A DNA stretch of 63,896 bases, filler included, from Dimargaris cristalligena (GCA_003614675.1; 13 parts of 13 records of this genome joined end to end with filler, not necessarily neighbours in it); one strand, 5' to 3'. Shown: positions 281-35,938, counted from the whole stretch's first letter. Numbers and translations: made by a program. Notes: generated from the letters alone by a model not told the origin.

Positions 281-861
281 TATTAGCCCTTCTAATCTAC
301 CTTAATCCAGATACCATGCCATCCATCCTTATTGGGCCTTATAATACTATATTAACCTTCCCATAGTCATCCCCAGTACTATGGGGTTATCCTATATCAT
401 ATAACCCTTCCCTTTCTGGACTCTGGAGTTCCCATAAATCACTCCCAGGCTGATTTAACAACTCTTCCAGTTCCTAGTAGAGTCTTCTATGCCCTTACAC
501 CATCTGGTTAGTATTTTATCTACCAATATTTATAGTAGTATCTTCCTTTTAGGGCCTCCCTTTGGAGTAGTCCCCTGTATATATATAACTGGCCCCCACT
601 GGGACCAGTTAGATTCCTTAGCTTATTCCTATCCCCCCTGTTTATCTCAATAAATATCTCATATATGCTCACCCATTGTACTGACCAGTAAGTGTACACT
701 GCTGCATGTCCCTTGCATAATGGACTACATAAGCCTTTATTAGTTAGTACTGCCCCATACCCAATATTAGTAGCCTACTTAGCTGAGCCTAAGCCCCACC
801 TACTGTTGGAAGCCTATCCTTAGGACTCTTGATGGACTAAGAGTAGTAAACCCGAGTGACA
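281..861 (+). mobile_element. LTR family A copy (~580 bp), transition-mutated
   Basis: Aligns end to end in inverted orientation with 35354..35938. Ends in ...GTGACA. The 5' end reads TA, probably a mutated TG. A TATATATA (~578) is followed by AATAAA (~649), as expected for U3-R-U5. CpG is nearly absent. No matching TSD is visible. Confidence 0.75.
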
Positions 862-913
862 TTCTTTAATATAAACTTTGAAATGCTAATTAAGGAAAAC
901 TATCAGGTAGTAA

Positions 914-1180
914 TTATGTAGTATAGGGTGGCCTCATATTCCATGTACCAGGCTGGGAGAGATGTGAGGTAGAGTTGACACCCACCTCAGGTTGCTTCAA
1001 TGCTGCAATGGAGGGTCCGAACTTAAAAGGTTTCAGGATGTTCAGGGACGCGGATTGGGTGATCTCAGGGTTGCTGAAACTCATAGTTAATGTTGGATAT
1101 AAATGTAGGAAACAAGGAAATAGAATTACCAAAGCGCTTAGAATAATACTAGCAAAAATAATAATGGTTTATTAAAAATG
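914..1180 (-). repeat. Dispersed short-ORF repeat family 1 (homologous to 57870..58070)
   Basis: Translation VILFPC..PEITQSASLNILKPFKFGPSIAALKQPE matches VIKFPC..SETTQSAPSSIRKLIMLGPSISALKQQE at 57899. The upstream DNA also aligns. Confidence 0.6.
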
Positions 1181-1743
1181 TATAATAGTTTCAAATATGA
1201 AATATGAACCTCAACTGGCAGATGTTTTTTTGTTTCCTTCACAGGATTTCATTATTTTTATATGTAATTTCGAATATTATAGAACATACTAGCTAAATTG
1301 CAAAAGTGGATATAATAGAATTGGCAGGAATGTTTGATAGCTGATTCTGTTGGCATATATCAACAATCAAAGAATAGCAAATTTTAATTGCAATGGTGAC
1401 ATAAAATCCGTCGCTAGGCGTAGATATGATAAAAACAAGCTAAGTATACCACTGACAAATAGGCCATGCGTAAGGTACAATATCAACTGCTAGCAATCAG
1501 TTATGGCATGCCGGACGGCACTATATATATTTAGACTCAGTAGGACCTGCGGGCCTGTCGGCCAATTTAAACCTGGGCAATACACCAATCATGGCATATT
1601 TCAAAGATGATTTACGGGGCTTTGTGGAAGAAATCGATATAGTGGTTTTCATCAACAGCCGCGAGCAAGAATAGTTTTATATTCCCTAGGACACAGAGAA
1701 CATGACTCAGTCTTATGAAGACTAAGCTGCCGCCATAAATGAA

Positions 1744-2712
1744 CTACTCGGACAACACGTACTCATTACACTCTTTACAATAAAATTCGCCTGTAATTGT
1801 TTCATACACGCTGTGACCATCATGGTCAGTTGTATTAGAACCATGGCTATAACTGGAATCATTGTCTGAGCCATCACTAGATTCACGTTCGGAGTCATCA
1901 CTGGATTCACGGTTGGGGCCATCATTGGGTTCACGGTCGAAGCCATTTCTGGATTCACTGTCAGGGTCATTTCTGGAACTATCATGGTCGTCCGTATTGG
2001 TGTAGCGACCATTGGGATTGGTCATATTTCCGATGGATATCGATTGAATCTGGCTAATGACATTGTGGAAATCATCAGTGCGTTCGACATGGTAGGAAGT
2101 GTTGCTGCTGTTTCGGGTCATTGAAGTACCGGTGTATCGCACTGCATCGATGGTGAGGACATTACCTTGGTTTAGTACTCCGATCACCGGCTCGTTATAT
2201 TCAGTGTCCCGATTATATTCTACACCCATCAACATATACTTATCAAGCTGTATCTGCGATTTACTCCTTTGGATGCTAGGGGATGCTGATTTGGATTCTC
2301 CCACCGCTATAATATATTCCATATCAGGTCGGTCGGCATTGGGATTGTCCGTGCGATATACCGTCCAATCAGGCCGTAAAAATGAATCCGTCGTTGCGGT
2401 ATTGGGCTCGGCGATGATAGTATTGTCTTCGGTTTCATATGTGGCATTGAATACATGGCCCGTTATGGAATCAAATGGATGCTCACGCCTTGGTGTACGC
2501 GAGGCCTGACGAAACAATGACGGAAGGGCAGCTAAATTGGATGTCACGCGAAATGCATTGGTGTCTAAGACGTGGTTCACAGGGTAACGTTCCTCCAAAG
2601 GGGTGGGACTGGTAGCAAATAAATCGCTATTACGCTCAGAGTGTGCTGGACGCCTTTCACCATCATCGCTATCTCGTTCACGACGGGTATACGCTCTATC
2701 AGAAAATGACAT
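1744..2712 (-). CDS. Intronless orphan protein (322 aa) with a putative PD-(D/E)xK restriction-endonuclease-like domain, acidic repeat tail and terminal CxxC
   Basis: Long intact ORF. Motif order RPDWTVY...IIAVGESK...QIQLDKYM...VIGVL fits PD..(E)xK..QLxxY of REase-fold proteins. The C-terminus reads HDGH..FYCKEC. Confidence 0.55.
   Translation of the reverse strand: MSFSDRAYTRRERDSDDGERRPAHSERNSDLFATSPTPLEERYPVNHVLDTNAFRVTSNLAALPSLFRQASRTPRREHPFDSITGHVFNATYETEDNTIIAEPNTATTDSFLRPDWTVYRTDNPNADRPDMEYIIAVGESKSASPSIQRSKSQIQLDKYMLMGVEYNRDTEYNEPVIGVLNQGNVLTIDAVRYTGTSMTRNSSNTSYHVERTDDFHNVISQIQSISIGNMTNPNGRYTNTDDHDSSRNDPDSESRNGFDREPNDGPNRESSDDSERESSDGSDNDSSYSHGSNTTDHDGHSVYETITGEFYCKECNEYVLSE
1855..1980 (-). 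repeat. In-frame 24-bp tandem repeat (~5 copies) encoding Asp/Ser/Glu-rich octapeptides
   Basis: On the minus strand GTGAATCCAGTGATGGCTCCGACC-like units recur every 24 nt (DSESRNGF/DREPNDGP/NRESSDDS/ERESSDGS). Confidence 0.8.
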
Positions 2713-3794
2713 TCCTGTTTGTTCACTTGTTTGTATCTGGCCAGTGTACTAACTTGTACTCGAATCTCCTTCTGTATTTCCAACTGTTGTCACAGTTAGT
2801 ATTATAAAAACAACCAAAGAAAAAACTGGTAAGGCTATCATGGAGGATGTCTACACAACCTAGTCTATAAATTTCCACGCTTAATCAACATTCGATTAGA
2901 CTTACTATACAGTGGTGTCAGAATATCAGAACTGATCGGCACGACGAGTTTGGTCAATTAACTGGTACTTAGAACAGAAAAACTGAAGGAGCCGAAGATC
3001 CGGATACTAAAAAAAGGAAAGGTCCAAGGCCTTGGTAAATATGAATAATAAAGGCCCGGCAATAAGTGTCAATTGGTATTGCCGCAGATGAAAGAGGAAT
3101 ATAAAATGATTGTAGGTCTGCAAATGTGTAGAAAAAATGCTTGATCATTTATGAATGGGACAATAGGGGTAGGTTTTTATACCCGAGTGATTACCTACTA
3201 TGTTGACTGGCACTGCTGCGTTCTTGAATTCCCGCAGTGCATATCCTACTACTAAACTAAAGATTATTATGAAGGGGTGTGTAGCTTCAGGCGGGAAGTT
3301 TACACTGCTGCTAACATGGATAAGCAAAAAGGGGAAGGTCCTTTGACCTTCCCATGGTCAATAATAATAGAACATAAATTTGGATAGTTGATAAATGAAT
3401 AATATATGGGAATAGTGGTTGCATGGCCATATCTAGTCATTGGTAAAAGAACCATTTGAATAGGAGGCTGAAGCATTGGAGAAATGGCCTTCCAGTTTCC
3501 ATGGGTAGAGTAGAAGGCCTACCCCATGACATTAGGCCAAATAGGTTTTAACCAATTCCAAAAACTCCACCTGGATTACCTAATAAGGCTATTAGCTACC
3601 TACCACAATATCTTCCTCCCCTGTGGTACATCTATATAGTAATACCTAGCATGGAATCATCAATCACTAATGATCAATATCACCCCCTCCTACATATGGC
3701 CCATCCATCATTTCTATATTTAGTTTGATGATATCCCATTAATATCTTTTATGCCTACTATTTTACCATTAATATTATTAATAATATTCCACGT

Positions 3795-4055
3795 ACTAAC
3801 TAGACTGGATTAAGTCTAGTTAGTAGTGACTATATTAGGCTTTATTGTATCATATTACCATTCCCATGACTACACCTAGTACTATGGGACTATTAATTAG
3901 TATAACCTTTCTAGCCCTGACCCCATCTTCCCACTATTCACCTTAGTGTAAACCTAAAGACTCTTCCAGTTCCCATAAGAGTCTTCTAGACACTACTAGG
4001 CCCTAGCTGGCCTATTTACCTAGATTATTAGTATTAGTAGTTTTCCTTTTAGGAT
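3795..4055 (+). mobile_element. Degraded partial LTR family A copy
   Basis: Shares blocks with 300..555 (TTCCCAT-AGT...AGTACTATGGG, ACTCTTCCAGTTCC..AGAGTCTTCTA, TTCCTTTTAGG). Boundaries are approximate. Confidence 0.6.
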
Positions 4056-4233
4056 ATGGGCTTTATATGATATTATTAAGATATTAAAATAAATAAAAAA
4101 ATGTTATTAAAGGGGTAGGTTAACCTCTCCAGCTAAACTAGATAGCTACTTTATATAAAAATTAATATAAATTATAGTAGCAATAGTCCCTATTTAGAAG
4201 CTTAGAAGAACTATTCCTTAGTAACTACAATAT

Positions 4234-4440
4234 GGAAGAAGTTCATTCAAGCTGTATAACAAAAAATCCATTGGAAGAGGCCAATATTATTGGTTAAAAG
4301 ATATGGGAGTAGTTCAACCAGGCTGTATAACAAAAAATCCATTTGATGAGGCAAATACTACTAGTTGAAAATTAACATCCCACCGATTTTCCCATACACA
4401 TATTGGCTAAAACCTTATACAGCTAAGCTGAACTTTACCC
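4234..4440 (+). mobile_element. 136-bp MITE (4305..4440) preceded by a truncated copy (4234..4300)
   Basis: Imperfect TIRs GGGAGTAGTTCAACCAGGCTGTATAA / TTATACAGCTAAGCTGAACTTTACCC, with ATAT on both flanks. Confidence 0.8.
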
Positions 4441-4478
4441 ATATCAAAAGGGTATAAAATCTAAATAATATAGTTAAC

Positions 4479-4807
4479 TGTTACCTAGGTTAACTACTCT
4501 TAGTCTACTAAGAGTCCTAAGGATAGGCTTCTAATAGTAGGTGTGCCTAGGCTTGGCTAAGTAGTTACTAATATTAGTTATAAGGGTAGGGTATTAACTA
4601 ATAAAGGCTTAGCAATAGTATATATATAAAGGATATATAGTAATATATACTTACTTGTTAGTATAATAAGGTAAGTATATATAAGGGTTTATTAGATAAA
4701 TTAGGGTTAAGAATAAGCTAAGGTACTAATAAGTATTAATATAGTCCTATTATTACAATATAAGAATACCTCCAGTAGAAAGGTCCTAAGAATAATACTA
4801 TAAAGAC
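4479..4807 (-). mobile_element. LTR family A copy, interrupted by LTR family B
   Basis: Starts TGTTACCTAGGTTAACTACTCTTAGTC, the reverse complement of the 861 end. It is the most TpA-rich copy. Confidence 0.7.
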
Positions 4808-4920
4808 TGTAAAGAACTGAACTCAAATCCTTGAAAACTGAACTTTATTTGAAAAAATAGATAATAAAAGGGAAAGGTGATAATAGACTTGCTGTTCCAA
4901 GAGGTGGCAGCAAGGGGGAG
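4808..4920 (-). mobile_element. LTR family B terminus (runs into the contig end)
   Basis: Begins TGTAAAGAACTGAACTCAAATCC and matches 35009..35092 in inverted orientation. AATAAA is present on the minus strand. Confidence 0.6.
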
Positions 4921-5020
4921 NNNNNNNNNNNNNNNNNNNNNNNNNNNNNNNNNNNNNNNNNNNNTTAATTAATTAANNNNNNNNNNNNNNNNNNNNNNNN
5001 NNNNNNNNNNNNNNNNNNNN
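4921..5020. other. Artificial contig spacer N44-TTAATTAATTAA-N44
   Basis: Identical 100-nt spacers also lie at 9932, 14938, 19943, 24946, 29937, 34909, 39881, 44851, 49815, 54781 and 59741. The 12-mer gives stops in all six frames. Confidence 0.98.
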
Positions 5021-5039
5021 TAGTTATATATATATTTCT

Positions 5040-5354: not shown

Positions 5355-5561
5355 AAAATGGGATTTATTGATTAATCTATACAATTGGACCACTCGACTG
5401 GTAAGGTTGAACTATTATGGAAAAGGGTGATCAAGCAAATGCTCCTCCGCCAAATGACCAGCTTACTAGTATTTCCCAAACCTTTCACCTCCTTCGAAAT
5501 ACAACCTGATGCATGGTAAATATATGTATTTATAAATGTGTGTGTGAGCCCATCCCATCCA

Positions 5562-8500
5562 TTAAGCGAGGTATTTATAAACGCGTCGATCATTCGCACT
5601 CCGTTCGAGGTAATCGCGGTCGATTAGTATTTCTATACGTTGCTTGATCATCGTAGGGTCAGCCAAAAAGCGCGGTTGTAATTGTCCCGTCACCTCGGCC
5701 AATAGGTGATTATGATTCAGCTGCTTACGCTGCTTCATGATACGTACAATAGCGGCCTCCACTAATCCTTTACGGCTCTCATTGACCCAGGCCTGGGTGG
5801 CCCGTCGCTCGGATTCGGATTCCACCCCGTTACTTTCACCAGCGAACACGGAAACGCCGGGGGGCGAATGGACGCCGGAGGGACAGTGGTCTTTACCACT
5901 ACCCCCTTGGGCATGAGGTCCACTGCCGCCGCCAGCATGTCCGGCATTTCCGCTGGAAGCGGCGGCCCGGAACTTGATTTTGGCCAGGGGTGACATGAAT
6001 TTCGCATTGACTTGAAACCGGTCCGTAGCGGGCTCAATATCGGACGAGGGTGGGTCTTTAGTCAACACCTTATATTTGCCACACGCGAGGGTCCGCAAGT
6101 TGCGACGGAGCTCGTATTCAGGGACACTGGTGCGCTGGACGAGGTCATTAAAGGTTAACCATGTCGATTCGTCGGTTTCTTCGTTAAAACACAGGAGAAT
6201 AAGCATTTGGAAGGTAGATACGTTCAGGATATACTTTTTCGTACCGAAACAGCAGCGAATGTCGGCATGCCCCGCGTTAAGTTGCCAGGTCAACCGGCGC
6301 CCGTTGTGTTTATTCAGGTAAAACCGGTTGTAGGCCTCCAGTCCCGATAATAGCTCTAGAGGGAGTTGGATGGTGGAGGTAACGGGGGCGGAGGAGCTGG
6401 TTGGCGCATTAGTCGAGTTCGTGGAGGTCGTGAACGCCGTGACTGAAGTAGCCGGCATCGGCCAGTAGGATGCCGTCAGTACTTGGACGTTCAGTTTGAA
6501 ATCTACTGCGTCGAGAATAGTGTGCTGGTGGTAGGTCTGGAATTCATCGTTACTTTCGGCGGATATGCGCATATCGTTGAACATTCCCTCCAGTTTCGAC
6601 GTGAATTGGTAGCCACATTCCACTTTGAGTTTGGTGATCATAGATCGCTCGGCATCTTCGGACAAACTGCGTTGAAGCAAGAGACGCTTGGCTAAATGCT
6701 GCTTGTAATACCGCTCGAATACATCCTTATCGTTGAGGTAACGAAACACAGTCACCGTAGAACTTAAAGCAGCGTCTGTGTCTGCCTCACTCTTGCCTCG
6801 GCCCCCACGAGTCAGGTGGTCATCAATATAGAGGGACAGGAATTCAGGCGATTTGGCCTGCTGATTGATGAAATTGGCGAAGGATTGGTTAAAGCCGACA
6901 TCAAATGAGGTATCACCCCGGAAGCAGTCCGACACCAGGGTATGGGCCAACTGGACCAGTTCCAGTACTCGCTGGACCCACCGGGTGGAGACAGGTGAGC
7001 TGTTACCCCCTTTGGCGTTATTCTTGGATCGTTTAGCAGCCGCCGGGGTTGGCGGGGCTTCGAGCTCGGTCTTGGTTTGCTGGTTGATTTCCACCCCAAG
7101 CTGAAGAATTAGGGCGATGCACTCGGCCTTCAGCTCGGCTAAACTAGTGGGAGTCTCTTTAAAGAGGGTATAGAGAAGATTCAGCTCTTCGAATTGCCGC
7201 TGATTCACCATGGCCGCTAGACCGCTTGGCATCTATAAGGTGTCAGGAAAAAATTGCAAGCGGGTTAATATTCAGCCATGGAAGGCCCTCAGAAAGACTG
7301 GGTAAAACGAGTGAGGTTGCCATCTACGTGTGGCTATGCTGACGAACAGGGTTATCAACCTCCACGAAGTAGAGTCAGATCACCGGAGGTTTCAGCAGCT
7401 GTGGGCTGGGTCGGAATGAATAAACATATACTAACCTTGAGTAGTGTCGAACTATGCGCTGCGACAAGCTCGGCGTGGACCGCTTTGGTTAGCTGACTCC
7501 CGGTCTCGGGCGGTAGGTAATTCTGGCAGCGTTCCAGCTCACAGTCCAATGACCGGCTGGTAAATCGAAGGAACTGGATGGTCCCCAACTCCTGGATTTT
7601 CTCCGCACCCACTCGAGCGTAATACTGCATGGTACGGTTTACAATGGCCGGCTCAAATACAGTATGGTAAATACTCGTAGTGAACACCGTCGAAGTAGCC
7701 GGCACGGTATTAAAGAGCGTGATTGTTTTCTTCAGGAGCACCCGATCCACCAGATCCCCTCCTCTTTCTCGGTCAATATCGGCCAAAATCTGGTTCAGGA
7801 CACGGGGTTGAATTTGGTAGGTACTTGACTGGAGAACAACGTCTCTAAAAAGGGAAAGTCCCATATCGTAAGTCAATGGGACCTGGGCGGTGGTGCAGTA
7901 ATGACGGTCCTAGAATATCGGGATTGTATATTAAGGCAGGAGAGCATTGCCTCTGAAGGAATGGTGAGTCGATAATAACCAGAGGAGTCTCTATCGTTTT
8001 CTCTCGGGGATATTCTGTAGTACGATGGGGGGGGGTGGTCTGCCAACATAACCGAGCCAGTAAGTACAGGTACAGTTCCTATGAAATGCACGCTTGTCAA
8101 CAGATGTTAGCAATATAAACTATTACAAAACGACACGAACATACCATATAGAGCAATATAACCTTAATGAGTTGGATACAGGTGCTGTGCTCGGACCACA
8201 GACGGTCTAACATGGCCAGGAGATTCGGGTCATCGCCGGTGGGCATTGTAGATGAGTCTGTTGACAGTATTATTGTATCATTCAACTCCTTGGAGTCCGA
8301 ATTCAACTGATTCGGGCGGTTATTGGACAGCCGAAACCACTCCTGCAACCGCCGCGATAGATGTTCTTTAATTAACCGCTGTACCCCTTCATAAAGGGTA
8401 TGGCCTTCCTCGTCGTTGACCATGTTATACGTACTACGGTATAGTTCTTCATAGCTGAGATTGGAGTCGTCCTGTTGGAAAATATTCCTGATTGCCTGGG

Positions 8501-8951: not shown

Positions 8952-9070
8952 GGGTCGGGGTGAAATGGGAAGAGGTAGAGGAAGGTCCAGGGCAGGAGGG
9001 GAAGTTAGGTGTAGAGGTAAAGAAAGTAATAGGGAAGACTGCGCATTTCTTCCAGGTTAAGTCACGATTT

Positions 9071-9206
9071 GGGTGAACTTCAACCCAACTGTATAAGATT
9101 TTACACAATATGTGTATGGGAGAATATGTGGGAGAATAACTTTTGACCAGTAATATTTACCTCATCAAATGGATTATTCGTTATACAGCCTGGATGAATA
9201 TCTGCC
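9071..9206 (-). mobile_element. 136-bp MITE, ~120 bp upstream of the CUL3 start
   Basis: Reverse-complement copy of 4305..4440 and 37245..37380 with both TIRs. Confidence 0.8.
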
Positions 9207-12203
9207 ATATGGAGCCCATCCACCAGCTTTCAGTTAAACTTTGTTAACGCCTCCAAGTACAGGGGAATGTTCCATTCCAGCTTCCTTTCAACCAATACAC
9301 CGGCCACTTCAATACAATGGACCGCAGCACCTATCAATTTTAACGGATATCGCGATTAGAGTCCATCTTGGGGGGACTTTCTCCCAAGGCCCCCCCACTA
9401 GGGAATGTGTTAGTGGGTTACAATAAAGGCCACCAAAAACTACAGCAATTTACAGCTAAACCTTTAAGTTGAGGAGGCCATTTATCACCCACTTTTCAGA
9501 CATTGGTCGTTGCGCATATGGAACTATTAAGAAATATAGCTTGTATGGCAACATACGGGATGTCTTGTTAATTATGTACAGGGGAGGTTTAATGTGACTG
9601 TTTAAGCCGGCCTAATAGAGGCAAGACCTTACTATGCAGTTTGCCTATAGCAAGCCTTATTATACTATACCAGTTTCCCTCGGCAACACACTGTGCAATG
9701 ATGAACCTTTACTTCATCTCTAGTTAGTACCTTCAGACATTGCATCTTATTCCCAAGAATTGAACTGAAAATTATTGCATTCCTACCATAGTGTTTTAGA
9801 TACCGACAGCATCTGACAATATCTATATCATTACCTTCCGGATGATACGCAGGTACCATCTATACATACAAATGCCCCTACCGGGTTTACAACTAGTTAG
9901 TTTCATATCTTGTACTTCCCCCTTATTTATCNNNNNNNNNNNNNNNNNNNNNNNNNNNNNNNNNNNNNNNNNNNNTTAATTAATTAANNNNNNNNNNNNN
10001 NNNNNNNNNNNNNNNNNNNNNNNNNNNNNNNCAATTTGAATAAAACATCTTGATTTTGTACTTGTTTACTTTGTATAGAATTGTATCGACTTATAGTCTA
10101 CAGTTCTCCACCTATTTCAGACTATTGATTATTATTTACTAGAGTCTAGGTATTTTTCGCTACTCTATAGCTATTGGGACTTTTTTATTTATTTACTTCA
10201 TCAAATTTTTCCCATCACTGCACAACACTGTGTTGTGGCCAGATTAGCATGACCTTAGTAACCCTATTAATTCCTACATTTAACTTTCTTCAGTCTCGGA
10301 CCTTCCCTCCAAAAGAGGAAGACCTCCGAGAGTTTCTCAATTCCTTTAGTAATCAAATTGTTGTCTTCAGCATATTTTTCAATTCTTTATATTTTATGAG
10401 AATGGCAGACTTTCTGACCACATACCTTAGTAACACAATGCCCATTTATTGAGGAGTCATGTGGTCATAGTAGTAATAATTAGTAATATATAATCTGGCC
10501 ATTCCCCACTGGGTGGATGGCAATTCCTCTCCTAACTCCGATTTTTCTATTCCTTTTGAGTAATCATTATAACTAAAGTTATACTGGAAACTTCCTGTGG
10601 CTGTATTATTAATAAATCAGTTCTTATCTATACTTTAAAGCTGTGATTTGATTTATTTTCTTTTTTGGATGTCTTTGGCACAACATTCTATATGACAAAT
10701 AGTATATTAAATATATGTAAAACACTATAAATTATTGTATTAGTAGATGTAGGAATCTCAATATATATATTTGTCACTAATCACAATCGGGATTTGAAAA
10801 TAGCTAAATTAATTGAAGGCTTAATATCAGTATATCTATAAAATTGTAACAGTCTATACTTTACTTGGAGCTGCAACTCCTATTGGTATTTGTCTAAAAA
10901 CTGGCCTTATTTTGACTTATAGAGTGATACTTAGATGTAATATTTAATGATACTGAATAATAAATCAGGATAACTAAGGTGATAAAAGTGATATTGGTAG
11001 CATAACTTATGTTATAATAACTGAGGTTTAGATAGATTGCTGCCCATGAAATAAGTACAAGCAAAATAATCCGAAACCAGGATACTTTGATGATAAAGAA
11101 TACTGCCGGCATCACTGGTAATAAATCAGAGATCTGACTTGGTCCCAAGGTAAACTTTTTAGCTAAAATGGCCATTTGGGATTCTATGACCTAGACTCCA
11201 TACTTCAGCTGCTGTATGAAAGCCCGTACAGCCAGTTCCCAATTCACTAAACTAGCTATTATACTGCAAACAATTTCACCACATCCTATCTGGTCTATTC
11301 TTTCTTGGTGTGGGCTATTTTAATTCTTACTGGAAATTTTGACCTACTACAGGGGACGCTGCGGATGTATTCAAAGTGTCTTACTTCAGAGGGAACACAT
11401 GTCATGTGGATATTTTAGAGATGTCTATTCTTGATCACTATGATATTTCCTATAGGCAAATCTATTAAATCTACCCAGGCCCTGGTGCTATTTGGGGGGT
11501 CTTAGCCAAGTTCATTTTTGAGATGTAATATTGTTTGGCATAAATGAGCCCACATTACTTATCTTGTTCTAAGTAGTTCATAGTATTTAACTCCGAAGAG
11601 GCAATACCCATTCGACTTTGAATCATTGGTGGATTTATCCATTTGGGACTGGTGATTGAAATAGCTTGGAATACTCCCGCTACTTGATTTGCCCACCCCA
11701 CGGGATTTCTACCCCCGCTCCTAAAGAATCCGTCCCATCCCCCCAATCGCTAAATCGATTGTTACGGTGTGGTGCCTGTGGAGTTGAAGGAAGCTGAACG
11801 TGTACGGAGCACTTTCGCTCTGGCCCAGACAATCCCCGCTGTTAACCAACTCTTCCCCCACACCCTGCCCTTCTTCCGGTTTGTCTCTTCTGATCGAAGC
11901 ACATTTCTCTTTACCTTCTCCGCATCCCCCACTACTGTAAGTCTAGCCCGCTTGCCCTTTCTTATTTTATAAGACCCGTCTCCTAGCTGTGCGGTACCCT
12001 TTAGTTTGGCTGGGCTACTTCCCAGTACTATGTGATCCCGGACAGCTAGAGGGTTGCCGATTCCCTCTCCTAGACAGTTTCATCCGACCAAGGGGAAGGT
12101 GTACTAAGACCTTCCCCCATACAATTCCTTCAACTCCAAATCCGCCTAACTAACCTATACATCCGTTACTCTTTCTGCCACCACTAGTCCCAACTCCATC
12201 ATC

Positions 12204-19857: not shown

Positions 19858-19883
19858 ATGTGTATGTGTGTGTGTGTGTGTGT
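19858..19883 (+). repeat. (TG)n microsatellite
   Basis: TGTGTATGTGTGTGTGTGTGTGTG read directly. Confidence 0.85.
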
Positions 19884-20109: not shown

Positions 20110-20181
20110 GGCTCGGTGGTTTAGTGGTATAATACTCCCTTAGGGTGGGAGTGGTCCCGGGTTCGATTCCCGGCCGAGCCC
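20110..20181 (+). tRNA. tRNA-Pro (anticodon AGG), intronless
   Basis: Acceptor stem GGCTCGG/CCGAGCC. A box TGGTTTAGTGG. Anticodon arm CTCCC-TTAGGGT-GGGAG. T arm CCGGG-TTCGATT-CCCGG. A Pol III T-tract follows at ~20193. Confidence 0.97.
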
Positions 20182-25045: not shown

Positions 25046-28000
25046 GATAGTGCCCGACAGGAATCGGATCATTGTCATTAGTGAGCTGAGCAACCCACCC
25101 ACCTATGGCATAGTCGGAGGCATCATGGAAGACGTAGGTTTGGAGGATGGGACTTAAGTGGGTGACCACAGGTGCCTTGGAGATAGTGTTCTGGAGATGC
25201 TCAAAGGAGAACTGCTTGGGTTTGGTCCAGACCTAGGGTTTCTTTTCCGATCGTAGTTCTCCAAGCAGTGAGGTGATCTCCAAGTAGTTGTTGCCTAGGG
25301 TAGGAGGTAGTTGGTGAATCCTATGAAGAACTGGATATAGTGGGTGTTTTGTGAGCTTTCCCATTTGAGGACAGTGGAGATTGTAGAGGAGGCAATGGAG
25401 ACGCCGACAGGCTCGACTTGGTGACCACAGATAACAATTTCCTCCTTGCCCCAGAGGCATTTGCTTGGTTGGACGTCTAGCTGGTGCTTGAGCAGGATCG
25501 CCAGGACTTCTTCAACATATCAATTGTGCTCTTCTTTAGTATTCAAGTACATTGGTATGTTGTTGAGGTAGGAGATGACAAGCTAGTTGTAGAGGTGATC
25601 GAGGATAAAGTCCATGAGGCGTTGGAAGCAGGCCTGAGCGTTTGAAAGTCTGATCGGCATGACTATGAACTCGAAGTAGCCGTATTATAATCCAATTGCT
25701 GTTTTCTCTATCGTGTGTTCTGAGACCCGATAAGATGGCAGGCGTGTTTGACGTCCAAGAGGATCAAGTATTTGGCTTAGACAAGCCAGTTGCGCATTTT
25801 GAGTCAGCTGTGTTGCGGTGTCTGATCTGACCAGATGACAGAGTTGAGACAATGATAGTCAAGGCAGAACCGCACGCTGCGGTCGTTTTTCTGGTGAATA
25901 CATTGAGCACTCCCCATGCTGACCAAGAATACCAAATCCATCCTTTTTCTAGTTCACCACGGATCTGTTTTTTTAATTCCTCGAGCTCATCTTAGGGGAG
26001 CAGGGGGAAACCGGCAGCAGTTCCGCTGAGGGTATGCTCTGAGTTCGAGCTAGAAGTCTTGTTTGCCTTGATCAGGCGGGTGATAGACGTCTGGCTGGGA
26101 CAGGGTTGTTTTGTTGTATTTCTTGAAAAGCTCTTTGAGAAAGCCCTCCTGCCTGTCTGTTGCGATGCCGACCGTTGGTTTCATGATGATCTGATGGAGG
26201 AGCTCTTCCAGGGTGGCGAGATGAGTGGTAAGGATTTGGAGGACATTGAGGTTGTCTGGGCTGTATCACCTACACCCCAGGGTGTATCAGGCACAGTTGA
26301 ATTTTCCGTGGCGCCATGCTTTGACAAACCGGTCGGGCTTCATCTCTGTAGTGTCTGGAAACGGACTATATGAAGGGGTCTAGCATCTGAGAGTCTGTTT
26401 TCGAAACTTAAGTTGATGGCAAAATTTGAAGCTACAGGGGGAGTGCGATACGTGTCTGATTCTGGGAATAGGTATTTTCCTGATGCAGTAGTGGTTGCCA
26501 AGGTAGCATTGCGAGTAGGTACAGGAGGATGGCCAGCTAATCACCAGGGGGTACAAGGAGTTAGACCTGAGGGAGAGGCCAAGACCCTGCAGTGCTTCTC
26601 CGCCTGCTTGGTGACTCCTGTCTTGCATGATTTGATGAGGAATGCGTAAAAGACATCACAGAAGTCCTGGTTGGTGAGAGAGTAGACCGTAGGCAGCAAT
26701 GGTCAGTCGGCCACCTGGGCTACAAAAAGGGCTGCATCATCGAGGGCAATTAGCTCCAGGCTCTCTTTGTAGTATTCTTCCAGGTAGTTGCTCACAGAGT
26801 GGACGAAGTTTGCTACTCTTTCATTGCTTTGGGTGAGGCCTTCCTATTCCTCAACCACCCTGGTCTTGCCCAAGCGGATATCTTTTGGGAGGTTCTCGAA
26901 GGGCACGTTTAAGATGGTTGAGGATGTTGATTGGGGGAGGTCGATTTTGACAATGCTGAGGTTTTGGGCAAAGGCAGTGTTGACATTGGGTAAGTTGATG
27001 GTTGTCAAGGTTGGCTGGGCAGTGGCTCCACATCCAGGGGTGACTGCCCTTCCATTTGCTCAGCCGCCAGACTGCCAATATACCCAGTTGCTCCAACGCC
27101 CTCACTAGCTCCAGGCCCAACTCCAGACGTGTTAGTCAGCAAGATGCTTGTCGATGCCAAGGTCCCGAGTTGATCCTTGCTGGCCCTTGTGAGTACTGAC
27201 TTGTGTCACTACATCAAGGGGTCTTGTCTGGAGGAGTTACTTGAGAACAAAGATAAGTGGGGGTGAGGAAGGAACACAGCAGTGCTCCCATGTGGTGAAC
27301 CTAAGTATATCAGCGCTCAATGATAACGAGAGGAAAATGGAGTAAAACAAGCAAAGTAAGAAGTTGCTATTGTCCGTTTTAGCCACTCTCGGTCAGCCAG
27401 GCAACCCTCCTCAAGGTCCACGTCCAGCTGTGAATTGCTGGTATCACTCTCTCCCTCAGCTCCCCTCTCCTGCTCGCAACGCTTGGTTTTCTTCTGCTGT
27501 GTATGTGCCTGAACCTCATGTAGACACTCCATAGCCTCAGTCTAGGCCTGATGTTGGCGGTACTCAGCCTGAGCCTCCCAAGGTCTCAACGTGCATCAGC
27601 CTGGGCAAGCCATATCATGTACGACGACATGGCCTGTAGTGTGCAAGCGGCGGTTTCCGCAGGATCTGTCCGCACTGCCTTTGTCATCTTGTCTGATGAC
27701 AGCTCGTATTTGTGATCCTTAGTGCCCAGGGGAGGCCTCTCAGGTATGCTGCTGGTGGAGGACTTTAAGGAGGCTGTCGGGGCTTAGGCCATCATGAGAA
27801 TTGAGGTTCAGGCAGCAGCGTCTTTGCAGGAGCTATGGGGTTGTCAATCTTGTCCTGCGGCTCCTTGAGACTGTTCTCATACTAGTAGTTGGTAAAGTCC
27901 TTGCCAAGACTGGCAGGGGTAGGTGGGAGAAGATCTTCAGGCTCTAGAAAACTGGGTGGTTGCAGTGTGGAGGCGATTGTTGGCCGCGTTGTGGGCCTTG

Positions 28001-28500
28001 CCTGTGACGAAACCCCCAACACGGAGCGCAGCATCATGTTCATCATGGTACTTCATATATATCCCATAAACCTGTGAGATCCATATAAAAAACGGAATTG
28101 GGCCACCCTCCCCCCTCTGACCGTGTTCATCCTTCTCATCCCTGCCACCAGCCCTTGCCTCTCGACTCATTTTGGTTTTTCAGACCATAATTTGAAGCCC
28201 CTATTGGCTGTCTCTGGGCATAAATTGCGGATTTCCTGTTGGTGGCGGCACTCCAATTGTGATGGCAGAGAAGCAGACAAATAGAGGAGAACCCTCTGCC
28301 ATATACATACTTTAAAAGTTTCACTGACAATCCGCTTCTTATCCTTTAAGCTTTGCTTCTTCTCCTGGGTGACCTCCATAGCCTAACTGTGTTCAAACTC
28401 TGCCAGGATGAGGGTCAGGTCATGTGAGGTAGCCTGGGCCAGCTCCTGCAAAGGAGAGGGGCCATTGCACCCCTCATTGTCCCAGTCTGATTTAGAAGTG
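25046..28500 (-). mobile_element. Decayed Ty3/Gypsy LTR retrotransposon (gag-like region and RT; 3' end cut by the spacer)
   Basis: Minus-strand RT motifs VRFCLDYHCLN, GYFEFIVMPIRLSNAQACFQRLM and VISYLNNI (ex-YLDD) at ~25500-25880. A gag-like region with a degenerate Zn knuckle lies at ~26450-26900. Many stops; the 5' boundary is approximate. Confidence 0.85.
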
Positions 28501-30036
28501 TACTCAGGGTTGCTGCTACGCTAGTCAAGATTGGACATTAATGGGATGGAGGAACGGAGGGATGGAGGTGAGGAGTGATAGGTTTAGCTGGGTGAGAGGA
28601 TGCAGTAGGAGGCAGAAGGGGGGAGCGGCGGTCTCCAGGCGGCAGGACTTGACGTTGTGGCTTGGGAGTCAAGGATGGATGGGGGCTTTGGTGGTTGAGG
28701 TAGGAGGATAAGTGGGAGAGTGGTGGTCATATGGAATGGTTTGGGAATACTTCAACTAACTCGCGCCCAGCAAGCGCTAACACCAAAATGCTCAAATTAC
28801 CTTTCGGTCCTGCTAGACCTTTTTAGTCCAGTTTAGCAAACTGATCCCACCTCAGGAGTTGGGATTAAATCTCAATCCACAAGCAAGTGAATTACAATTC
28901 AGATGCGCGACAAATTCAATCTGAATCATTTTCCATTTCAAAACAAACCTCTATACTCGTTTATCAAGTCTCCGTAAAAAGCTGTCATTCCCACCCATGC
29001 ATCCCTCATCCAAAAAGCTTGCTTCAGCTTGGTATTCAAACGCCTCACCTTCTTTACTGAAAAAATTGTCTACCTCTCCCCCAGCTGTCTCATCTGAACA
29101 AATTTCATGATCTAATTTTCAACCTGTTGTTCTCGCCGAGGCCGCAAGGCTGCCTTGCACACTGGTGGACTATCAAACACTGCTTTGTCCCATACGGATC
29201 GTACAATGACACAGAAAATGTCAAAAGCCAGAAGATATTCGCCACATGCTGCAAAAAGGAACAAGCATCCTTTCCGGACCAACGTCGACTGAGATCCTCA
29301 AGCCGGCCCCCCACCCGCAGATATCTTGTTTTGAATCCCTGAACCCAGATCTTCCACATTTCAGAGGAGGTAGCTTCTCTTCTTTTGTTGTCAGGCTTGT
29401 TAAAGATTTTCTTCCCCCACTCCCCCTAGGTGTGTCCCTTCTAGCAATCTCATCATTCTTTTTTTGATCCGCTGGACTCTAAGTGCAAGGCACATGTGCT
29501 CACTGGTTACCTGCATGGGAGAGGCTCCATGAGACACGAACGACAACCTTTCTCTTATACCCAAATACCGCTACTCCCTTGTAGCTCACATACCACAAAT
29601 GTCTGCCTTCCTGGACATTCTCTATCATTCACTCTTTATCTCTAAAGAAAGCTTGGTTCAATAATCCAACACCAGAATGACTTTGCGACACTGATTTGTC
29701 CCATATGGCCAGCAGCACAACACAGAAAGGTGTCAACCGTTCAACAATATGTTTGACATACACCCATAAGCACTCCTTCTTGCCCATCATCAACTTCTGG
29801 TCCTAATCCATTGCTCCCCCTGAAAAATTGAATCGATTCTCCAACAACCCTGATTCTCGTGCAGTGTAGAGTTGGTAGCTCCTTGGTTTTTGTTGACAGC
29901 GACAGGCTTGATTATTCTTCCCCCCCCCCCAGCCCTNNNNNNNNNNNNNNNNNNNNNNNNNNNNNNNNNNNNNNNNNNNNTTAATTAATTAANNNNNNNN
30001 NNNNNNNNNNNNNNNNNNNNNNNNNNNNNNNNNNNN

Positions 30037-33770: not shown

Positions 33771-34313
33771 GTTTTCTAATTTTTAGGGGTTATGGATTAA
33801 GCTAGAACTGGCACTAGTCCTAACTCAGGTATGAATTCTATCGGCGGCATTCGGTTATTCGAAAACATCCCGTCATATTGTTCATCCTGTTGGAACCGGT
33901 TACGAATTCTGGTGACATGATAGTTGGAAGAATTAATGGTAACTGGAAGATGAATAATAACTGCGAAGGATAAATAAATGGACACAATAGGACGGTAATC
34001 CATTCTCATTCTCAGGAAAGGTTTGGAAGGATAACTTCGTCGATATTTACGAACATAAGAGATTATATAATATATAAGATAATAATAGTTCGAACCTCGG
34101 AGGAGTATTGGGATCTTCAGTGGCCGAACTATGGCTTGAAGTACAAAGAGGATAGGTTTTCCATGAGAAATATCGACGAGTCCAATTAAGGAAACTCGTT
34201 AAACAAAATTAGACTTTCATCCTTCCTGCATCAAGCAGTAATATATAAACATATATTTTGCTTCCGCTATAGTAAATCCGTCGTATTAACCTATTGCGGG
34301 AGGAAGACAGCTC

Positions 34314-34908
34314 TCACATGAAGTAAAGAATATTGGTCAACTTATTCACCACTGGTACCAGTGCAGTGACCTGCCCTTGGGCAGCCGCGGAAATAGTACT
34401 ACCGGCATCATCATCCGTGGATTCCACTCGACCATGGCGGTGGTAACGGGCGCGGAAGGCCAACAGGTCCGCAAAGTAGGCGGGTGGACACAGGGATACG
34501 GAACGGGTACAGCGGGGGAACAGGTAGCACATTTGGTTGGTGAGCACCTGAAGGCTGTCGGCAGTGAACTTGTTCTCGTCGTGAAGCACTGTGTAGTGGG
34601 TGGGGCGTGAAGTGCCCTGGAGGCCACCGTGGGCCTGCAGGAAGAAGTCGAACTCCTTGGGGTGGGTAATGTCGCGGTCCACCACGGTACCCGCGGGGCA
34701 ATTGCCCGAGCGGTCGGCCCGGTTGGCCTGGGCGGGCATAAAGCGGATATGGTGGCGCTTCTGGCAAGTCACAAAGGTAACTGGGACCGAATTCTTGTAG
34801 AAGGATGCGGCGGCTTTTTTAATCGCCCCCAGTTCATGGGTCAGCACGGTTTGGAACTGGGATTCAGACACACCATCCCGGTAAAACAGGATACGGCGGG
34901 GGAACAGT
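34314..34908 (-). CDS. Argonaute, C-terminal PIWI domain (5' part missing)
   Basis: [30 protein letters not shown] and [17 protein letters not shown], ending in a hydrophobic YFM C-terminus. Confidence 0.96.
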
Positions 34909-35008
34909 NNNNNNNNNNNNNNNNNNNNNNNNNNNNNNNNNNNNNNNNNNNNTTAATTAATTAANNNNNNNNNNNNNNNNNNNNNNNNNNNNNNNNNNNN
35001 NNNNNNNN

Positions 35009-35092
35009 AAGTCTATCATCACCTTTCCCTTTTTATCACCTATCTTTTCGAATAAAGTTCAGTTTTCAAGGATTTGATTTCAGTTCTTTATA
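35009..35092 (+). mobile_element. LTR family B terminus
   Basis: Reverse complement of 4808..4890. The terminal ..CTTTACA reads ..CTTTATA here. Confidence 0.6.
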
Positions 35093-35353
35093 CCATCTCA
35101 TCAGGAGTGCTAAAAATGGGCAAACTACTAAAATAAACTAAAAGTGTAAAAGAGGGATTTCTTTTATAGAGTTTCCCATATAAGTACCCCTGCTCATTTG
35201 TGAAGAGGTAATAAACTATAGCACAGGTTTCTTTACACCAATTAAGTGCATAGATGAGTCTCAGAAATTCCAAGATGGATGTTTGAGCTATTAGGGATAT
35301 TGCAAGTTTCTTGGAATATAATTTTTCTTTAATATTATATAGATTAAGGTCAA

Positions 35354-35938
35354 TATTACCCAAGTTAACCACTCTTAGTCTGTCAAGAGTCTTGGGGATA
35401 GGCTCCTAACAGTAGGTGGGGCTTAGACTCAGCCAAGCAGGCTACTAGCATTAGGTATGGGGCACAGTACTAACCAATAAAGGCTTATGTGATTGGTTAT
35501 GTAAGGGACATGCAGCAGGCACACTTATGGGTTAGTATGAATGGGTAAGTATATATAGAGTTTATTGGGGTAAACTAGGGGGGTAAGAATAAGCTGAAGA
35601 ACCTAACTGCTCTTAATGGGGCCCAGTTATATATACATGGGGGACAACTCCAGAGGGAGGTACCCGGGGGAAGGTACTACTAAGACTAATGATATAATGA
35701 GTAAGCTAACCAGATGGCTGGGAGGACTTAGAAGACTCTAATGGTAACCGGAAGAGTCTTTGGATCAGCAATTGAGTGATTAGTGTGAAGAGGTAGAGTC
35801 TGGAAGGGGAAGGGTTATATGATATAGGTGGATCCCATAGTACCAGAGGTGACCATGGGAAGGTTAATAGGGTACTATAAGGCCTAATAAGGGCAGGCAG
35901 CATAGTGTTCAGATTAAGGTAGATTAGAAGGGCCAATA
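35354..35938 (-). mobile_element. Solo LTR family A (585 bp) with 5-bp target-site duplication GTCAA
   Basis: GTCAA at 35349-35353 and 35939-35943 flanks a full-length homolog of 281..861. Both termini read TA instead of TG/CA. Confidence 0.85.

Follow-up and report, generated by a model that had tools for sequence, protein, structure and literature searches.

Repeated DNA in Dimargaris cristalligena probably carries two layers of C-to-T decay, a general loss of CpG and a patchy conversion of CpA to TpA. The RIP-like signature in these repeats is real but thinly sampled, as the strongly affected material consists of one copy of about 250 nt of the LTR-A repeat family and the block of some 240 nt beside it, and nothing more. 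To our knowledge, a repeat-mutating defence with a CpA-to-TpA mark has so far been shown only in higher fungi; C-to-T change beyond CpG in LTR-A is a RIP-like outcome in an early-diverging, non-Dikarya fungus, seen in very few copies. The window, which is the whole stretch of 63,896 nucleotides analysed and the 64-kb genome sample behind all results, is made up of 13 unrelated contigs, each about 4.9 kb long, joined by N44+TTAATTAATTAA+N44 spacers. Positions 281–35938, given as a single range in an earlier note on this DNA, are not one locus; they cross 8 of these 13 contigs and hold about 1.65 kb of LTR-A sequence in total (273–861, 3833–4053, 4479–4726 and 35354–35951); the final 13 bases of these segments overrun 35938 slightly. 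A cullin open reading frame (ORF) matches a D. cristalligena protein at 100% identity, with the next matches (48–51%) in other Dimargaritales. The host thus belongs to Zoopagomycota and is non-Dikarya, which the earlier note had named as the condition for the finding to be notable.

Three LTR-A copies and one fragment define the family. Copy A1 (273–861, minus strand; nhmmer E=8e-204) is full length at about 590 nt and is classed as CpG-free and TpA-rich, with CpA not depleted; A2 (4479–4726, plus strand; E=2.6e-36) contains the 5′ 250 nt only; A3 (35354–35951, plus strand; E=1e-211) is the ‘solo LTR’ of the earlier note; and A4 (3833–4053, minus strand; E=1.6e-22) is an old fragment spanning LTR positions ~312–539. 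A possible distant relative at a contig end (9630–9931, minus strand) is weak (E=0.0033), aligning poorly with many transversions. A1, A2 and A3 are homologous at 73–78% identity (blastn), and their termini as quoted previously map to 851–861 (−), 4479–4489 (+) and 35354–35364 (+). As claimed, the ends differ as TG/CA versus TA, with A1 and A2 starting with TGT and A3 with TAT, and the copies diverge chiefly by transitions: the ratio of transitions to transversions (ts/tv) is 96/33 for A1–A3, 40/16 for A1–A2 and 48/17 for A3–A2. For A1–A3 it is 56/10 in alignment columns 10–345 alone and only 35/24 over the LTR's 3′ half, and comparisons with A4 are ordinary at about 1.2 (A1–A4, 55/47; A3–A4, 49/39). 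The 5′ boundary of A1 is sharp at 861. The 5-nt GTCAA reported as a target-site duplication (TSD) does flank 35354–35938, but A1–A3 homology extends ~20 nt beyond 35938 and the second GTCAA falls where A1 and A3 differ by a 5-nt indel, so that both the TSD and the solo-LTR reading are doubtful. An ‘LTR-B’ differing as ACA versus ATA was not located in the window.

Loss of CpG in the repeats exceeds chance. The observed/expected (o/e) ratio of CpG is 0.0–0.1 in repeats versus about 1.0 in genes; it lies at 0.00–0.08 in LTR-A, families C and E and the region 35939–37240, whereas coding sequence with Pfam support (11.8 kb) reaches 0.98, unique non-coding DNA (3 kb) 1.03 and the unique stretch 1200–3400 0.88. 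Within LTR-A (composition computed on 281–861 for A1 and 35354–35938 for A3), CpG was counted 1, 0 and 2 times in A1, A2 and A3 versus 23, 4.6 and 25 expected, and TpA 75, 57 and 69 times versus 48, 30.2 and 45, bearing out the earlier description of CpG-less, TpA-rich repeats beside CpG-rich genes. When contig 1 is divided into 30 bins, copy depth is correlated with CpG o/e (Spearman rho −0.80, p=1e-7) and with the composite RIP index (rho 0.55, p=0.002), which on this contig exceeds zero solely in repeat bins, including the LTR-A windows; the two deepest bins score −0.51 and 0.23. One column pair in the alignment of a miniature repeat (MITE) family reads CG in two copies, TG in three and CA in one.

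The loss of CpA in A2 likewise exceeds chance. Compared with A1, A2 has TpA at 21 of 23 CpA sites, the reverse change at 0 of 58 TpA sites and TpY at 5 of 49 CpY sites (Fisher p=2e-11); compared with A3, 21 of 22 CpA have changed versus 9 of 46 CpY (p=1e-9). Aligned YR dinucleotides number 52, and 49 of them are TA in A2, nearly all CpA and TpG having become TpA. Its 6 CA+TG (25.4 expected) and its 57 TA were each unmatched in 5,000 shuffles, its GC content is 0.30, and the two indices proposed earlier as a check, TA/AT and (CA+TG)/(AC+GT), are 2.11 and 0.21. C>T and G>A changes number 25 each without strand runs (runs test P=0.34), consistent with action on duplex DNA. The depth of other copies over A2 falls from ~55,000 across the first ~60 nt (4508) to ~400–550 at 4571–4578, which indicates that the hypermutated state is private to A2; the polarity of the A2 branch rests on this depth argument rather than on an outgroup root. 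That branch also carries 11 transversions versus 1–2 for A1 and A3, so A2 is older as well. The adjoining CpG-free block (3989–4229, of which only 3989–4053 is LTR-A) is similarly depleted, with 8 CA+TG (24.3 expected), 47 TA (31 expected) and 0 CG (4.8 expected), at a depth of ~10,000 over a baseline of 152 (run X2). Unique non-coding DNA has o/e ratios of 0.95 for CA/TG and 1.11 for TpA, so the genome-wide spectrum is not the source of the composition of A2. C-to-T change beyond CpG, as asserted in the earlier note, is thus upheld in A2, beside which the block is CpA-poor too, but the evidence falls short of a genome-wide feature directed at repeats.

Elsewhere in LTR-A the effect of context is slight. 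The CpA effect between A1 and A3 is only marginally beyond chance (unpolarised, 18% of YpA versus 11% of YpY sites differ, p=0.055), and the unpolarised effect for A3–A2 gives p=0.14. With deRIP-style polarisation the observed CpA/CpY ratio is 2.51, but a context-free null simulation already yields a mean of 1.62 (99th percentile 2.42, maximum 2.71), so polarisation of the RIPCAL/deRIP kind inflates CpA artefactually. The pooled deRIP counts of C>T, biased in this way, are 26/51 for CpG, 53/131 for CpA, 34/244 for CpC and 17/170 for CpT, without an effect of the 5′ neighbour (NCA 0.38–0.47 and NCG 0.40–0.60 for each 5′ base). A1 and A3 have 102 TpA in common versus ~7 expected under independent change, and hence the TpA-richness of the family was mostly inherited from a shared ancestor, not acquired after insertion. 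A1, which shares a contig with A2 at a distance of 3.6 kb, retains its CpA (60 CA+TG, 68 expected); A3 has 64 CA+TG (69 expected). The ~22–23 CpG lost from these copies nevertheless predict ~90 CA+TG, as against the 60–64 observed; this deficit of ~28–30 is close to their TpA excess of 24–27, and the region 35939–36447 balances without any gain of TpA. C>T:G>A counts are 21:35 in A1 and 19:21 in A3, again without runs. Logan contigs placed on contig 1 at a likeness of at least 80% gave transition/transversion places of 284/110 (X2), 273/112 (X1) and 237/84 (X4). Among 40 listed of 482 difference places, 25 lie in high-copy repeats (the tally omits 15 outside them, at 1062–1088, 2089 and 3393–3448), and 22 of these are transitions, 11 in CpA, 6 in CpT, 4 in CpC and 1 in CpG context. 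High-copy LTR-A copies at 75–90% identity persist, and A1, A3 and A4 do so at 50–100 contigs per site with mild change.

MITE family M (seven copies, 145 nt) serves as an internal control and is not hypermutated. Its copies lie at 4228–4445 (+; 1.5 tandem copies between the CpA-poor block and A2, found by nhmmer, with boundaries at 4301 and 4444 taken from loose ends), 9065–9214 (−; E=4.7e-44), 23489–23639 (+; E=1.8e-37), 37238–37385 (+; E=9.5e-45), 41133–41282 (+; E=6.2e-39) and 59603–59740 (+; truncated by the contig end, E=1.9e-41). They differ by 53 transitions and 45 transversions in total, and C>T counts per site-copy (CpA 11/96, CpC 7/78, CpT 4/48) reveal no preference for CpA. CpG-free repeats outside LTR-A show CpG-only decay, with CA/TG o/e of 1.28–1.38 and TpA near 1. 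The region 35939–37240, which includes a 120-nt tandem repeat (36448–36731, TRF), has o/e ratios of 0.03 for CpG, 1.28 for CA/TG and 0.96 for TpA, and its part 35939–36447 contains 0 CG (20 expected) and 81 CA+TG (63 expected). The two copies of family C (10340–10570, plus strand, and 24714–24944, minus strand; blastn 69.6%) differ by 47 ts/24 tv and are CpG-depleted without an excess of TpA (o/e 0.08 and 1.04). The ratio is 32/21 in family B and 27/10 in family E, and a preference for CpA is weak or absent in B, C and E.

In the explanation that we favour, methylation of CpG restricted to repeats, followed by deamination of 5-methylcytosine (5mC), would have erased CpG from multi-copy DNA but left it untouched in genes and in unique non-coding DNA. 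The second layer would have affected a portion of LTR-A, a long family of high copy number, after integration, converting CpA and its complement TpG to TpA on both strands, and would be nearly complete in A2 and the adjoining block (~3989–4726, minus a later MITE insertion). A putative cytosine methyltransferase or deaminase activity would act on duplex DNA, accept CpA as well as CpG and be directed to some long repeats, passing over short repeats like the 145-nt MITE. Enzymatic mutation as in RIP and slow deamination of non-CG 5mC would leave the same traces in the sequences analysed here.

Decay without any special non-CpG process, in which CpG methylation and AT-biased mutation act on a TpA-rich master LTR and A2 and its neighbour are older relics, is unlikely, though it deserves some weight. 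It would account for the marginal A1–A3 context effect, the polarisation artefact demonstrated by simulation, the TpA common to A1 and A3, the extra transversions on the A2 branch and the CpG-only decay of other repeats; moreover, subtracting ~16 CpG-type and 30 CA/TG–TA transitions leaves ~50 ts/33 tv for A1–A3, near the MITE background. Age alone is nevertheless inadequate for A2, since it would also have altered CpY, which is mostly spared where CpA is almost gone and reversals are absent. Unique non-coding DNA, expected to lie near neutral equilibrium, would have to approach the CA/TG o/e of 0.24 rather than 0.95, and no shuffle reached the CA+TG count of A2. Single hypermutated copies are typical of APOBEC-like or RNA editing of retroelements, and LTR-A has the appearance of an LTR family: it starts with TGT, its 5′ boundary is sharp and its copies are numerous. 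Editing before integration, whether of the cDNA by a deaminase or of the RNA, is even so highly improbable: changes are strand-symmetric without runs in A1, A2 and A3, and the context preference is for a 3′ purine without a 5′-neighbour effect. Integrase requires conserved element ends, so the TA found at the terminus of A3 in place of TG would imply change after integration. Reverse transcriptase, integrase and gag domains that might mark a retroelement were absent from the 148 (12 + 136) ORFs scanned against Pfam, among 219 stop-to-stop ORFs of at least 70 aa in the window, the 71 skipped mostly overlapping long ORFs.

The contigs of the window are short, the assembly is fragmented and repeats are difficult to assemble, yet it is hardly credible that chimeric joins, assembly errors or amplification produced the divergent copies. 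Runs of two studies supplied contigs that match without a single difference over 1–530, 823–3330, 3455–3985, 3957–4259 and 4514–4834, those over A2 (4514–4833) coming from 3 runs; 585–822 of A1 is uncovered among the exact pieces listed, beyond which there are 9,734 further pieces. Errors would also show no specificity for CpA. Canonical RIP as in Neurospora, in which a RID/Masc1-type enzyme uses homology to recognise duplicates premeiotically and mutates both copies, would make the pathway older than Dikarya, or acquired. The preference for CpA with CpC and CpT spared on both strands, the indices of A2, the contrast between the long LTR-A and the spared MITE and the restriction of positive composite indices on contig 1 to repeat bins all agree with it, and Entomophthorales, also in Zoopagomycota, are reported to have composite-index signals and two-domain DNA_methylase proteins (PMC11105155, available portion). 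We nonetheless consider it quite unlikely, as A1, which is linked to A2 and shares 76% identity with it, is not depleted in CpA, A1, A3 and A4 persist in many mildly changed copies, and a strand-polar tract is absent. A 2026 review, in its accessible part, lists RID for Ascomycota only (PMC13297926), and a kingdom-wide k-mer screen, as far as its available text goes, found repeat-specific enrichment in Ascomycota only (PMC12543289).

The two-layer reading has partial counterparts in known systems. RID-dependent RIP in Pezizomycotina such as Neurospora crassa resembles A2 in its CpA-preferring C:G-to-T:A change that gives TpA, in largely sparing CpC and CpT, in acting on both strands and in index values, and the short repeat is likewise spared in Dimargaris. 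It differs in that the host is not an ascomycete, in that CpG changed as hard as CpA in the biased deRIP counts, and in the nearly unaffected linked copy and the persistence of other LTR-A copies. CpG-biased hypermutation of transposable elements (TEs) in Basidiomycota (Microbotryum, rusts), like 5mCpG deamination in general, resembles the near-total, repeat-confined CpG loss, including the reciprocal gain of TpG/CpA in 35939–37240 and family E; Horns et al. in 2012 reportedly described the basidiomycete bias with a preference for TpCpG. The same trinucleotide preference in Basidiomycota appears in the accessible text of PMC4352252 and is not seen in Dimargaris, where the numbers are small (TCG 2/5, CCG 17/34, GCG 4/7, ACG 3/5), and CpG-only decay is unable to convert CpA to TpA.

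No report linking RIP or 5mC to Dimargaris was found in the literature. Entomophthorales, notably Zoophthora radicans, belong to the same phylum but to another subphylum than Dimargaris (Kickxellomycotina) and offer a hint from sequence composition that RIP may extend beyond Dikarya, for which the authors flag major caveats; in the portion of that source available, the evidence is a composite index in 1-kb windows only, whereas that in Dimargaris is alignment-based and context-resolved, in one copy (PMC11105155). In TEs of the ascomycete Tuber melanosporum, for which RID/Masc1 and Dim2 homologues are listed, the CpG signature is predominant and CpA is secondary in a subset of copies (Amselem et al. 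2015, PMC4352252, available part). Dimargaris, a non-ascomycete sampled here in 4 copies, resembles Tuber, as far as that text shows, in its main CpG and secondary CpA signatures, the latter in part of the copies, and in a Ts/Tv above 2 in only some of them.

The LTR-A repeat is represented in the window by four pieces, located by self-blastn and nhmmer: A1 (positions 273–861, minus strand), A2 (4479–4726, plus strand), A3 (35354–35951, plus strand) and A4 (3833–4053, minus strand). Searching the window with an nhmmer LTR-A profile added only the extension of A4 and a weak match at 9630–9931, and blastn at word size 7 returned no additional repeat families across the whole window. A stretch of apparent homology at 3500–3832, from a transition-tolerant alignment (z approximately 4), was dropped for want of nhmmer support. 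The 5′ boundary of the repeat is sharp: A1, A2 and A3 all start with T(G/A)T(T/C)AC, share no homology upstream of this point, and contigs from public runs break there. Judged as LTR termini (TG…CA with a 4–6-bp target-site duplication), the 5′ ends are TGT for the first two copies, A1 and A2, whereas A3 begins with TAT. The GTCAA duplication by which the earlier note delimited a solo LTR is present on both sides of 35354–35938, but A1–A3 homology continues for approximately 20 nt beyond 35938 and the second of these GTCAA sequences lies inside a 5-nt indel, which makes a 3′ end at 35938 doubtful; the flanks of A1, AAGAA and TTTCT, do not match each other. Internal gag/pol sequence was not found: a Pfam scan (E at most 0.001) of 148 of the 219 stop-to-stop window ORFs of at least 70 aa, the other 71 mostly overlapping long scanned ORFs, gave no match to reverse transcriptase, integrase or gag. 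The internal regions of LTR-A may lie on other contigs.

Copy depth was read from Logan contigs of three DNA runs from two studies (X1, X2 and X4), aligned to contig 1 (positions 1–4,920) at a similarity of at least 80%. LTR-A is high-copy, with approximately 50–100 contigs per site, as are a 145-nt MITE and a repeat at 4757–4920, which has the highest depth of contig 1 (approximately 345,000–670,000, against a baseline of approximately 115–720); positions 985–3772 are at or close to single-copy depth. The LTR-A copies differ chiefly by transitions, as the earlier note had observed, with 96 transitions and 33 transversions between A1 and A3, 40 and 16 between A1 and A2, and 48 and 17 between A3 and A2. 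The ratio is 35/24 in the 3′ half of LTR-A (A1–A3) and approximately 1.2 in A4. Other contigs differ from contig 1 at 284 transition and 110 transversion places in X2, 273 and 112 in X1, and 237 and 84 in X4, so that the dominance of C:G→T:A changes characteristic of RIP is seen both in the LTR-A pairs and family-wide.

A RIP-like conversion of CpA to TpA is solidly established in copy A2. Aligned with A1, A2 has TpA at 21 of 23 CpA sites and T at 5 of 49 CpC or CpT (CpY) sites (Fisher p = 2 × 10⁻¹¹), with none of 58 TpA sites changed to CpA; aligned with A3, it has TpA at 21 of 22 CpA sites and T at 9 of 46 CpY sites. A2 reads TA at 49 of 52 aligned pyrimidine–purine (YR) dinucleotides, retains 6 CA+TG where 25.4 are expected and has 57 TA where 30.2 are expected, neither figure being equalled in extremity by any of 5,000 shuffles. 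The adjoining block, 3989–4229, has 8 CA+TG against 24.3 expected. The conversion of CpA/TpG to TpA is near-complete, on both strands, in one integrated copy and its neighbouring block, and the extension of C-to-T change beyond CpG proposed earlier holds for A2, where the changes are not confined to CpG. A process acting on CpG only cannot turn CpA into TpA, since the site is no longer CpG after the first change. The general mutation spectrum of the genome does not drive sequence to this state, as the CA/TG observed/expected ratio (o/e) in unique non-coding DNA is 0.95. The depth of other copies falls from approximately 55,000 in the first 60 nt or so of A2 to approximately 400–550 at 4571–4578, which indicates that the A2 state is private and not a subfamily consensus. 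The A2 branch carries approximately threefold the transversions of A1 and A3, yet a similar amount of CpY change, and the two clocks therefore disagree.

Alongside this patchy conversion, repeats show a general loss of CpG. Their CpG o/e is 0.00–0.08, compared with 0.98 in 11.8 kb of coding sequence, 1.03 in unique non-coding DNA and 0.88 in unique DNA at 1200–3400, bearing out the earlier contrast between repeats lacking CpG and CpG-rich genes and following the pattern expected of 5mCpG decay. When contig 1 is divided into 30 bins, their copy depth is correlated with CpG o/e (rho −0.80, p = 1 × 10⁻⁷) and TpA o/e (rho 0.56). CpG-directed decay of the repeats is solid, and they would, by inference from this depletion, once have been CpG-methylated. 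The LTR-A copies are also TpA-rich, as claimed, with the highest TpA o/e of all window classes (1.5–1.9). TpA/ApT is 2.11 in A2, 1.34 in A1 and 1.53 in A3, against 0.81 in genes and 0.77 in unique DNA at 1200–3400; (CpA+TpG)/(ApC+GpT) is 0.21, 1.00, 0.96, 1.00 and 1.24, respectively. By the usual thresholds for these indices, the RIP pattern (TpA/ApT high, (CpA+TpG)/(ApC+GpT) low, composite index above 0) is found.

For A1 and A3 the evidence is weaker. A deRIP-style polarisation, in which any site with C in at least one copy is treated as originally C, gives changes at 26 of 29 CpA sites in A2 and 8–9 of 29 in A1 and A3, compared with 6–20% of CpY sites. When context-free, symmetric transitions were simulated on the same TpA-rich sequence, however, the null CpA/CpY ratio was 1.62 (99th percentile 2.42, maximum 2.71), so the polarisation itself manufactures much of the CpA effect; the ratio observed for A1–A3 is 2.51. 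This polarisation was accordingly rejected as biased for A1 and A3; majority rule with A2 as the third copy was also rejected, being misleading given the TA state of A2 at nearly all YR sites. As a general caution, polarising changes in the manner of deRIP or RIPCAL produces CpA bias when the repeats are TpA-rich. Without polarisation, the share of sites that differ between A1 and A3 is 18% for YpA (pyrimidine followed by A), 15% for YpC, 7% for YpT and 6% for YpG, and the difference between YpA and YpY is marginal (p = 0.055). They have 102 TpA in common, against approximately 7 expected from independent events (30 differing and 31 shared-CpA sites), indicating that the TpA-richness of LTR-A was mostly inherited from the common ancestor of A1 and A3.

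Two further comparisons favour a milder CpA-to-TpA effect in A1 and A3. The first is a mass balance: the loss of approximately 22–23 CpG predicts approximately 90 CA+TG, 60–64 are observed, and the shortfall is close to the TpA excess of 24–27, while in the region 35939–36447 the CA+TG balance holds without TpA gain. The other comes from 40 of 482 difference places, of which 15, lying outside high-copy repeats (1062–1088, 2089 and 3393–3448), were left out; the 25 in-repeat places comprise 22 transitions, 11 of them in CpA context. Against such an effect, the 96 transitions between A1 and A3 include approximately 16 of CpG type and 30 between CA/TG and TA, and removal of both classes leaves 50 transitions and 33 transversions, near the MITE background. 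For the LTR-A family as a whole, the evidence for a RIP-like CpA→TpA process is suggestive.

The MITE family, approximately 145 nt long and with seven copies in the window (4228–4445; 9065–9214, minus strand; 23489–23639; 37238–37385; 41133–41282; 59603–59740), served as an internal control. Its terminal inverted repeats start with ATATGGGAG..GTTCA and end with the reverse complement, its boundaries are sharp at 4301 and 4444, and its genomic copy depth is very high. With 53 transitions and 45 transversions (approximately 1.2), its ratio is ordinary; the corresponding counts are 32/21 in family B, 47/24 in family C (10340–10570, plus strand, and 24714–24944, minus strand) and 27/10 in family E. 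The 1.5 MITE copies located between the two CpA-poor pieces show no hypermutation and are either later arrivals or were spared. A CpG-only pattern, with CA/TG o/e of 1.09–1.38 and TpA o/e of approximately 1, is found in the CpG-free region 35939–37240 and in families C and E. The reciprocal excess of TpG/CpA expected from 5mCpG decay is present in 35939–37240 (CA/TG o/e 1.28) and family E (1.38) and absent from LTR-A (0.24–0.89), for which an additional conversion to TpA must be invoked. Within the CpG-free region 35939–37240 lies a 120-nt tandem repeat (36448–36731; 2.4 copies, 74% match). An 82-nt stretch shared at 91% identity and in opposite orientation by two contig ends (4757–4920 and 35009–35090) is CpG-free without TpA enrichment. 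Two observations bear on whether the signal is confined to duplicated DNA above a length threshold: in the contig 1 bins, copy depth is correlated with the composite RIP index (rho 0.55, p = 0.002), and the 145-nt MITE and the very high-copy repeat at 4757–4920 are not RIP-like.

As to mechanism, CpG loss is confined to multi-copy DNA, and we infer a second activity that would deaminate or methylate cytosines preceding A in a subset of the long repeats. The sequence does not distinguish slow deamination of non-CG 5mC from an episodic RIP-type mutator. Strict RIP, in which all copies are mutated and linked ones most, is disfavoured: A1, on the same contig, still has 60 of an expected 68 CA+TG, compared with 6 of 25 in A2, and many mildly changed copies persist. 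Later insertion of A1 could account for the first of these contrasts. The CpA preference typical of RIP is itself pronounced in A2 and borderline in A1–A3, where the ratio of 2.51 lies just beyond the null 99th percentile. Editing of cDNA by an APOBEC-type enzyme, which would be expected to leave strand-asymmetric G-to-A changes on the plus strand of the element, is disfavoured by the strand symmetry of A2, in which C>T and G>A changes number 25 each and are interleaved (runs test P = 0.34); a strand-run test found no strand-polar tracts among the LTR-A changes, nor did these show a 5′-neighbour effect (TpCpG or ApCpA). An assembly artefact is disfavoured by zero-difference contigs, present in runs of two studies, that match the window's own copies over 1–530 and 4514–4834.

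The observation of the earlier note is confirmed in part and its interpretation has partial support: a RIP-like process is backed by A2, but the marginal A1–A3 comparison, the CpG-only pattern of other repeats and the sparing of linked A1 count against a general property of the genome, and a RIP-like process as a genome-wide repeat-targeted system is unproven. We consider it unlikely that in D. cristalligena (Zoopagomycota, Kickxellomycotina) a genuine cytosine mutator, directed at repeats and preferring CpA and CpG, acts, or recently acted, on long integrated repeats. Were this the case, it would represent a RIP-type genome defence outside Dikarya, either predating the Dikarya/zygomycete split or independently arisen via a non-RID enzyme.

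To our knowledge, experimental RIP is known only in Ascomycota. A kingdom-wide k-mer screen from 2025 (Badet and Croll) describes repeat-specific RIP-like enrichment as unique to Ascomycota, and took only scaffolds longer than 50 kb (PMC12543289), a cut-off by which a fragmented assembly such as that of D. cristalligena would have been filtered out. Within Zoopagomycota, the only hint known comes from a composition index that its authors present with reservations: in a 2024 eLife study of Entomophthora muscae and allied Entomophthorales, 24% of the genome of Zoophthora radicans is scored as ‘RIP’ by the composite index (PMC11105155). CpG-plus-CpA signatures are described in Tuber by Amselem et al. 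(2015), who tie CpA signatures to RID/Masc1 (PMC4352252), and reviews place RID in Ascomycota and present early-diverging fungi as 5mC-poor (PMC7862722, PMC13297926), the lineage being usually summarised as 5mC-poor and 6mA-rich (PMC13297926). Searches of the literature on Dimargaris methylation and on RIP in Dimargaris/Zoopagomycota found no report of RIP or 5mC in D. cristalligena, and the signature is recorded here as RIP-like in a lineage without prior documentation. A context-resolved hypermutated copy in a dimargaritalean mycoparasite provides alignment-level evidence for a RIP-like outcome outside Dikarya, and the near-total CpG loss speaks for substantial CpG methylation of the repeats in the past, in a lineage regarded as 5mC-poor.

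The host was identified from a cullin ORF (5562–7232, minus strand), 100% identical to a D. cristalligena protein, with next matches in other Dimargaritales (48–51% identity) and then in Mucoromycota and Glomeromycota (42–43%); a comparison based on sequence features likewise ranked Zoopagomycota first. It is thus a non-Dikarya fungus of the Zoopagomycota, the circumstance on which the earlier note had made its interest depend. A second D. cristalligena protein, which could represent an allele, a paralogue or an alternative gene model, matches the whole ORF at 89%; D. cristalligena is described as possibly non-haploid (PMC10386755). The window genes are housekeeping genes, encoding the cullin, NDK, RF-1, a protein kinase, an ABC transporter, an aconitase-family protein, a pyridine-nucleotide oxidoreductase and a cyclophilin, in addition to a Piwi-domain fragment. 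The last (34317–34907, minus strand; E = 1.8 × 10⁻⁵²), truncated by the contig end, indicates an Argonaute gene and hence RNAi as an available alternative defence against transposable elements; no DNA_methylase domain was matched among the 148 window ORFs scanned with Pfam.

The 13 contigs of the 63,896-base window (4,056–4,920 bases each, ordered from longest to shortest) are linked by 100-nt spacers of N44 + TTAATTAATTAA + N44 (4921–5020 and 11 further, at 9932–10031, 14938–15037 and so on to 59741–59840), and any feature spanning a spacer is an artefact. The interval 281–35938, given earlier as the range of the finding, is not a single locus but spans eight unrelated contigs, and LTR-A makes up approximately 1.65 kb of it. 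In repeat finding the spacers turn up as a 36-copy ‘repeat’ with a spacing of approximately 4.99 kb. A 334-aa ORF (1747–2748, minus strand) between the inverted LTR-A copies belongs to no Pfam family, has normal CpG and single-copy depth, and contains a 24-nt tandem repeat (1852–1962, 4.6 copies). Contig 6 (25046–29936) has, over its entire length, a CpG o/e of 0.43, a TpA o/e of 0.62, a CA/TG o/e of 1.25 and a GC content of 0.49, a composition unlike that of either genes or repeats on the other contigs. Its ORFs of at least 70 aa match no Pfam family, and a protein search with ORF 25996–26370, longer proteins included, found no homologue; candidate explanations for the contig are DNA with gene-body-type methylation, an unrecognised element and a foreign origin. 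The sole Rfam/ARAGORN match of the window is a tRNA-Pro(AGG) gene (20110–20181, plus strand), and an opposite-strand self-match in blastn marks a perfect 24-nt palindrome at 61434–61457.
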